Under the pieces are notes generated by a model, which did no database searches, was not told where the DNA came from, and saw only the letters and a program-made list of their open reading frames with translations. A program made the position numbers and the translations under genes. Of a DNA stretch of 64,000 nt, positions 15,329 to 17,293 are shown one piece after another (the stretch's first letter is position 1; every line of letters starts with the position of its first letter). This stretch comes from Escherichia coli (GTDB lineage Bacteria > Pseudomonadota > Gammaproteobacteria > Enterobacterales > Enterobacteriaceae): NCBI RefSeq assembly GCF_003334315.1, contig NZ_QOWR01000008.1; one strand, written 5' to 3'.

Positions 15329-17293
15329 TCAGGCGGCGGTGTTCGCCATACGTTGTTCGCGGTTTATCGCCTGCAAGGCGGAGACATCAACAATCAGTGC
15401 CACGCTGCCGTCGCCAAGAATGGTCGCAGCAGAAATGCCGGGGACTTTGCGATAGTTACTTTCAAGGTTTTTAACCACAACCTGGTGTTGACCAATTAAT
15501 TGATCCACCAGCAAGGCGTAGCGGCGACCGCCACTTTGTAAGATCACCACAATTCCCTGGGTGGCTTCGGTTTTCGCGCCCGCGACGTTGAACACTTTCC
15601 ACAGTTCGACGATGGGCAGATATTCACCCCGCACTTCCAGCACCCGCTCGCCGCCGGCCAGTGGATGGAGATCGGCTTCACGGGGTTGCAGTGATTCCAT
15701 AACAGCATTCAGCGGCAGAATGAAAACTTCATCCGCAACGCGTACGGACATGCCGTCGAGGATGGCCAGCGTCAGCGGCAGTAAAATGCGGATCGTAGTG
15801 CCAGTACCCTGCTTCGACTGGATTTCGACATGACCGCCCATCTCCTGGATATTACGTTTAACGACGTCCATGCCGACGCCGCGCCCGGAGACGTCGGTGA
15901 CCTGCTCTGCCGTGGAGAAGCCAGGTGCAAATATCAGCATCGCGACTTCGTCGTCGCTCATGTTTTCGCTGACAGTCAAACCTTGCGAGGCCGCTTTTGC
16001 CAGAATTCGCTCACGGTTTAGCCCCGCCCCATCGTCGGTCACTTCAATGCAAATGTTGCCGCCCTGATGTTCGGCAGACAGAATTAAATTTCCGACGCTG
16101 TTTTTACCTGCGGCGAGCCGTTTTTCTGGCAGTTCAATACCGTGATCGAGGCTATTGCGTACCAGGTGGGTCAGCGGGTCGATAATGCGTTCTATCAGGC
16201 TTTTGTCGAGTTCAGTAGAACTGCCTACCAGCGTCAGTTCTACCTGCTTGCCGAGTTTTCCCGCCAGATCACGCACCAGCCGGGGATAGCGACTAAAAAC
16301 ATATTCCATCGGCATCATGCGAATCGACATCACTGATTCCTGCAAATCACGGGCGTTACGTTGTAACTGCCCCATGCTGGTTATCAAATCACCATGATTA
16401 ACCGGGTCCAGTTCGCTGGAACGCTGGGCAAGCATGGACTGGGTGATAACCAGCTCGCCGACGAGGTTAATTAATTGATCAACCTTTTCTACCGCTACAC
16501 GGATGCTGGTGGATTCATTGCTGCGCGTCGTTTTTTCCCGCTCCACGCGGCCGGTTGGCGCTTGTTCGGCTGCCAGTTTAAGCACTGGTGGGGTGGATAT
16601 TTTTGGCGAGACTTCTACTGTTTCAAAGGTAATCTGATCGGCTTCAATCACAAAACAGAGTACCGCTGTGATGTCATCTTCGGCGATGTCGCCCGGTAAT
16701 ATTGCCGAGAGCGAATCCGCCCCTTTCACCACGTCAGTTAACGTTGTCAGATGTCCCAGTTCTTCTTCCAGCAGGTCGACTTCCCCGGACTTCAGGCGCG
16801 AAAGGATAATTCGTCGCGGCGACTGACTGCGACTCTGCTCATCTTGCGGTTCACTTTTGGCAACCACACTTAATCGGGTCACTGCGGATGGCGTTTCGCC
16901 TTTCGCTTCTAATGCCAGTTGACGCAAGGCCTGGCAGATATAATCGAAGCTGGCGGCATCCGGCTCTTGCGACTGTTTATAAGCGTCGAGCTGTTCTTGC
17001 ATGATGTCCTTCGTTTCCAAAAACAGATTGATAATGTCGGTGTTGAGTTGCATCTCACCTCGTCTGGCTTCATCGAGCAGGTTTTCCATCAGATGCGTGG
17101 TTTCCTGCAAAACGCTGAAGCCAAAAGTTCCTGCCCCTCCTTTGATCGAGTGGGCAGCCCGAAAGATGGCATTCAATTGTTCGGCATCTGGCGCTTCCGG
17201 CTGCAAAACCAGCAAATGCTGCTCCATGTCAGCCAACAGTTCGTCCGCTTCATCAAAAAATGTCTGATAAAAATCGCTTATATCCATGCTCAC
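15329..17293 (-). CDS. cheA: Chemotaxis histidine kinase CheA (long form)
   Basis: ORF 15329-17347; start moved to the GTG giving [20 protein letters not shown] (654 aa); internal Met98 at 17000-17002 is the known CheA-short start. Confidence 0.93.

Follow-up and report, generated by a model that had tools for sequence, protein, structure and literature searches.

Codon 98 of the chemotaxis gene cheA in the Escherichia coli DNA analyzed here is the documented translation start of CheA-short, referred to below as start(S). This ATG lies inside the coding sequence of the P1 domain and almost certainly acts as a second, independent initiation site with an embedded ribosome-binding region, from which CheA-short is made alongside the full-length protein. 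The feature is already known and annotated in the K-12 reference genome. Which codon is used and which protein results from it can be stated firmly on the evidence given below; how ribosomes are recruited to this codon is something that we infer from comparing cheA across the Enterobacteriaceae.

The cheA locus and its two translation starts

The window, i.e., the whole stretch of 64,000 nucleotides that was analyzed, is E. coli DNA and, across 701 bases, agrees fully (100%) with numerous E. coli chromosomes. Its minus strand carries motA, motB, cheA, cheW, and tar, and the two forms of cheA are laid out as follows:

15329..17293, minus strand: cheA long form (CheA-L) with a GTG start, 654 amino acids plus stop, seen as an open reading frame and in translation.
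15329..17002, minus strand: cheA short form (CheA-S), nested and in frame, 557 amino acids plus stop, with the same C-terminus as CheA-L; equivalent to the second cheA CDS of NC_000913.3.
17000..17002, minus strand: ATG codon 98, start(S), in frame and read as CAT on the plus strand.
17150..17152, minus strand: CAC codon of His48, the P1 histidine that accepts the phosphoryl group; missing in CheA-S.
17291..17304, minus strand: start of the long form, start(L), composed of a GAGGTGA Shine-Dalgarno sequence (17304..17298) followed by the GTG (17293..17291); -10.2 kcal/mol.

The GTG at 17293..17291 on the minus strand is the start codon of CheA-L, and since RefSeq places the same GTG start on the identical cheA gene of strain HS30-1, the codon numbering used here is the standard one. 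In the program-made list of open reading frames, cheA begins further upstream with a TTG at 17347 that differs from the annotated start. At start(L), the TGA stop codon of motB (17300..17298) is contained in the GAGGTGA sequence, so that the motB reading frame ends at 17298 with 4 nt between its stop and the GTG of cheA, and this overlapping layout is typical of translational coupling.

Re-translation of the gene confirms that codon 98 is an in-frame ATG on the minus strand, with its complement CAT at 17000-17002 of the plus strand, and the first-pass annotation of this DNA had the coordinates, the strand, the codon number, and the MQEQLDAYK peptide context all correct. From Met98 onward, the reading frame is open up to the stop codon shared with CheA-L. 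The His48 codon (17152..17150) lies upstream of ATG98, and a product of 557 amino acids that begins with Met98 therefore lacks His48, just as had been claimed for the short form and its missing phosphorylatable P1 histidine. A lone in-frame ATG would in itself be unremarkable because cheA contains 18 of them.

Elsewhere in the window, matches at Rfam gathering score were obtained for the MicL sRNA (410-717, minus strand), a cluster of three tRNAs (33013-33312, minus strand), and the C0465 RNA (14708-14785, plus strand), the last of which is located between tar and cheW on the strand opposite to both.

Codon 98 is the known start of CheA-short

CheA-short has reportedly been known since a 1980 study by Smith and Parkinson, and its start is said to have been mapped to codon 98 by Kofoid and Parkinson in 1991 (both as cited in PMC7696710). 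Sanatinia et al. (1995) reportedly also belongs to the primary papers on CheA-short, and a paper by McNamara and Wolfe from 1997 is said to cover, by its title, the coexpression of both CheA forms in Enterobacteriaceae.

The strain behind the window is not K-12, and its cheA differs from that of K-12 MG1655 by 3 nucleotides and 2 amino acids (A169S and K484E), all of them far from the start site. The two sequences are identical from -40 to +30 around ATG98 and also throughout codons 80-115, i.e., start(S) is found in the same gene, at the same codon, and among the same surrounding nucleotides in both. In the K-12 reference sequence NC_000913.3, cheA is annotated with two CDS features, 1973360..1975324 (654 amino acids) and 1973360..1975033 (557 amino acids, NP_416402.2), whose starts are 97 codons apart. 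The short product encoded in the window matches NP_416402.2, which has the N-terminus ATGCAAGAACAG, in both start and length.

Published experiments point to the same codon: CheAS was described as “initiated at codon ATG-98” and is eliminated by the M98L allele (PMC7696710), CheA(98-655) was used as CheAS and the M98I allele abolishes CheAS (PMC2644175), and reporter constructs make CheAS from its endogenous ribosome-binding site (PMC2716512). The gene is accordingly said in the literature to have “two alternative start codons” or “tandem translation starts” (PMC2716512, PMC2644175, PMC8563088). Together, the K-12 RefSeq CDS of 557 amino acids and the work on M98L and M98I substantiate the first-pass proposal that ATG98 is the documented start of CheA-short.

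With regard to function, CheA-short is known to lack the first 97 residues including His48 (PMC3180615, PMC8563088), and both the role of His48 and the domain make-up of the short form have been described (PMC3180615). According to the literature, CheA-short itself is not phosphorylatable and is not essential for chemotaxis. What remains of P1 in CheA-short, largely its fifth helix, binds CheZ and localizes it to receptor clusters (PMC3180615, PMC3676780, PMC1447658, PMC8563088). Applied to the window, ribosomes would bind the motAB-cheAW mRNA at start(S) and synthesize a CheA-short comprising residues 98-654 (557 amino acids). In this protein, His48 and helices A-D of P1 (the four-helix bundle) would be missing, whereas the final helix of P1 would be retained along with P2 and the dimerization, kinase, and CheW-like domains. 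Its exposed N-terminal P1 remnant would then bind the phosphatase CheZ and recruit it to receptor clusters.

Comparable cases are known from other genes. The tandem starts of E. coli infB, which give rise to IF2 alpha and beta, likewise use an in-frame internal start to generate N-terminally truncated isoforms with a common C-terminus, though gene and function differ from those of cheA, and the two have been named together as classic examples of internal initiation (PMC11005335, PMC12350097). [quoted passage not shown] However, these proteins are unrelated to CheA, and the likeness is confined to the mode of expression.

Met98 is invariant in the Enterobacteriaceae and replaced in distant relatives

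To our set of cheA genes from 80 species-level Enterobacteriaceae genomes (74-94% identity in P1) we added that of the window, and an ATG at codon 98 is present in all 81 sequences. For the wider protein family, we searched 1.84 billion representative proteins for the residue at position 98. Relatives below ca. 65% identity nearly all carry Leu (the commonest residue), Ile, or Val at this position, and Met is restricted to the closest group. Judged from these alignments, Met98 is a lineage-specific replacement of an ancestral Leu. The Leu, Ile, and Val residues of distant relatives indicate that Met98 is derived, lineage-restricted, and dispensable for the Hpt fold, and dispensability is consistent with the reported function of the M98L and M98I alleles (PMC7696710, PMC2644175). 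At the amino acid level, Met23, Met69, and Met81 are as well conserved as Met98, though without synonymous constraint in their surroundings.

Several relatives at 62-69% P1 identity (P0019, P0020, P0022, and P0025 among the database proteins; L084 and L088 among the loci) have Leu98 but carry a methionine one position earlier (Met97, in the context “KDML”), and in L084 and L088 the sequence AAGGAC forms the two codons directly before the ATG of Met97. In four species-representative genomes, the cheA frame (which begins at position 1501 of each locus) stops early, namely in Citrobacter koseri NCTC10786 after 374 amino acids, Phytobacter ursingii after 560, Kluyvera intermedia after 128, and Kluyvera genomosp. 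3 after 446 (loci L005, L058, L065, and L076); these could be pseudogenes or assembly errors. Three database proteins that match the query (P0138, P0092, and P0093) start at the equivalents of CheA Met81 or Met69; they probably reflect gene prediction on fragmentary contigs and not genuine isoforms.

Synonymous variation is suppressed around start(S)

The codon-level alignment of the 81 sequences revealed a zone of low synonymous variation around codon 98:

16976..17032, minus strand: zone of suppressed synonymous variation, approximately codons 88-106; putative ribosome-binding region of start(S).

Normalized synonymous entropy in the 15-codon window covering codons 88-102 is 0.231 compared to a gene mean of 0.627. 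This is the lowest value in all of cheA and was not reached in any of 5000 permutations. The 23 lowest windows of the 654-codon gene all overlap codons 79-115, and the minimum of synonymous variation is centered on codon 98 itself. By comparison, the 5' end of cheA (codons 1-15) has a synonymous entropy of 0.404 and ranks only 24th lowest.

The same region stands out within the species. A 65-mer centered on ATG98 is identical in 5365 of 5379 E. coli genomes, compared to 1860 of 5379 and 36 of 5342 for control 65-mers placed elsewhere in cheA, with the last of these counts being partly lowered because the segment covers codon 169, where the window differs from K-12 (A169S). The synonymous constraint is evidence of selection at the RNA level around start(S). 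The constrained zone spans approximately -27 to +27 relative to the ATG, roughly the extent of an initiation region, and we therefore interpret it as an embedded region for ribosome binding, for which fixed synonymous sites over such a stretch would be expected.

Ribosome-binding determinants of start(S)

Two sequence elements upstream of ATG98 could contribute to ribosome binding:

17007..17011, minus strand: AAGGA, Shine-Dalgarno-like, 4 nt before ATG98 in the Lys95-Asp96 codons AAG GAC; duplex with the 16S rRNA 3' end at -5.4 kcal/mol.
17013..17026, minus strand: CTGTTTTTGGAAAC block, from codon 90 to the second base of codon 94; invariant or near-invariant across Enterobacteriaceae, with a U5 tract and a weak GGAA.

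It had been suggested in the first-pass annotation to look for a Shine-Dalgarno-like sequence shortly upstream of the internal ATG, and such a sequence indeed exists in the window in the form of AAGGA, but it is found in only 7 of the 81 sequences. Escherichia is among these seven, and most genera that keep ATG98 do not have the element. At the codon level, Lys95 is encoded by AAG in only 7/81 sequences and Asp96 by GAC in 9/81, while most genera have ACC AAA GAT ATT ATG leading into start(S), with AAA GAT being the Salmonella/Citrobacter type. AAGGA is thus not the conserved determinant. Even in E. coli, its duplex with the 16S rRNA is weaker than that of the Shine-Dalgarno sequence of start(L) (-5.4 versus -10.2 kcal/mol), its spacing of 4 nt is short, and the anti-Shine-Dalgarno pairing of ATG98 ranks only ca. 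13th of the 49 in-frame NTG codons.

The block further upstream is far more uniform, with its TTT, TTG, and GAA codons each present in 81/81 sequences and its CTG codon in 80/81. Its GGAA at -16..-13 offers the best anti-Shine-Dalgarno pairing in 74 of the 81 sequences, albeit a weak one (-3.3 kcal/mol). The stretch from -26 to +3 is richer in A+T than the cheA gene as a whole (62% versus 47%). When predicted accessibility is averaged across the species, the two highest-ranking zones within the first 420 codons are codons 6-13 and codons 86-105, i.e., those adjoining the two starts. Codon 98 itself ranks 36th of 418 in this average, at ca. 100-fold above the median, whereas its accessibility in E. 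coli alone is moderate (rank 74 of 420).

Taken together, these features suggest that ribosome binding at start(S) depends on low structure together with a U-tract upstream and purine motifs that are either weak or distant. 30S subunits would load de novo on this A/U-rich and comparatively unstructured stretch. In all Enterobacteriaceae, the invariant CUGUUUUUGGAAAC block at -26 to -13, with its U-tract and weak GGAA, would be available for this purpose, and in Escherichia the nearby AAGGA 4 nt upstream of the ATG may have been added as help. A retapamulin preprint makes no mention of cheA, and the literature searched offered no confirmation of start(S) by ribosome profiling.

A more far-reaching proposal would be that the block and the constrained zone of ca. 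57 nt constitute a specific element for initiation or regulation that is largely independent of a Shine-Dalgarno sequence, e.g., a site for ribosomal protein S1 or a trans-acting factor, which might set the ratio of CheA-long to CheA-short across the Enterobacteriaceae, might be adjustable with growth phase, and might date back, together with the exchange of Leu98 for Met, to the ancestor of this lineage. We put this forward only tentatively and consider it rather unlikely in this specific form.

Alternative explanations for the short form and its start

The term “translational restart” used in the first-pass annotation would imply that ribosomes that started upstream terminate near codon 98 and then reinitiate at its ATG. 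Both starts do reside on one mRNA, and neighboring chemotaxis genes are translationally coupled (PMC2716512), as such a mechanism would have it. However, frame 0 is uninterrupted from codon 1 onward, and the closest stop codons of the other two frames lie 55, 70, and 89 nt upstream of ATG98. The literature moreover speaks of alternative or tandem start codons and reports CheA-S from the endogenous ribosome-binding site without CheA-L (PMC2716512, PMC2644175). Since no frame has a stop codon within 55 nt upstream, initiation at start(S) seems to be independent and internal; the internal start of the earlier proposal stands while its restart wording does not, and we consider reinitiation to be extremely improbable. 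We would give equally little credence to the notion that ATG98 is an ordinary internal methionine codon and that the short protein is a product of proteolysis or is translated from the transcript of a promoter inside cheA. The 18 in-frame ATGs of the gene and the equal conservation of Met23, Met69, and Met81 would fit an unexceptional methionine, but the short form is abolished by M98L (PMC7696710) and M98I (PMC2644175), Leu, Ile, or Val takes the place of Met98 in distant relatives, synonymous constraint of this kind surrounds Met98 specifically, and RefSeq annotates the CDS. A consensus scan for sigma-70-like promoters, covering sigma-70 only, returned no site in 16850..17450.

Another possibility is that initiation at start(S) is controlled by a conserved hairpin whose 18-nt loop would carry the AUG at its end and which would determine the long-to-short ratio. 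RNAalifold applied to 20 species predicts a stem of 9 bp between CUGUUUUUG (17026..17018, codons 90-92) and CAAGAACAG (16999..16991, codons 99-101), i.e., both halves fall on codons without synonymous variation, and the sole common change, CAG/CAA at Gln99, maintains its pair as U-G or U-A. Yet the stem is invariant within the family and hence offers no covariation, and its stability does not exceed that of shuffled sequences, 62 of 200 of which fold equally well (z = -0.38). Among distant relatives that keep Met98 (L085, L086, and L087), only 5, 4, and 7 of the 9 pairs are retained without compensating changes, with the Leu92 codon being CTG or CTA instead of TTG, and a G-C pair is broken in one species (L067). 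We have therefore rejected a hairpin enclosing the AUG, given the lack of covariation, the z-score, and this decay in distant Met98 relatives, and regard it as very unlikely to control start(S). The embedded ribosome-binding region at ATG98 is the reading that we retain.

Other candidate signals in this part of cheA were considered as well. ATG81 (17053..17051, minus strand) is preceded by GAGGTGA (17061..17055), a perfect 7-nt complement of the 16S rRNA 3' end that at -10.2 kcal/mol equals the Shine-Dalgarno sequence of start(L). However, this motif ends 1 nt from the ATG, and the codons of Arg77, Arg78, Gly79, and Glu80 vary freely at synonymous sites across the 81 species, so that ATG81 is probably not a start. 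Frameshifting into the -1 frame on the G UUU UUG run was considered by inspection; the heptamer does not have the canonical X XXY YYZ form. Any binding of CsrA to the two GGA motifs would be pure speculation, and the literature searched contained no paper linking CsrA CLIP data to cheA.

Significance

As a discovery, start(S) of the window carries little weight, given that CheA-short has long been known and that the K-12 reference annotates the short CDS. Most automated RefSeq annotations, including that of a genome identical to the window, nevertheless list only the long CDS, and the short isoform is therefore easily missed. What the comparative analysis adds is of modest value, i.e., the derived nature of Met98, the peak of synonymous constraint around it, and a Shine-Dalgarno sequence that is not conserved. 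The textbook-looking Shine-Dalgarno sequence of start(S) in E. coli is not the conserved part of the site. Together, these results make start(S) a clear case from nature of an initiation region that is embedded in a coding sequence and has a weak or atypical Shine-Dalgarno sequence.
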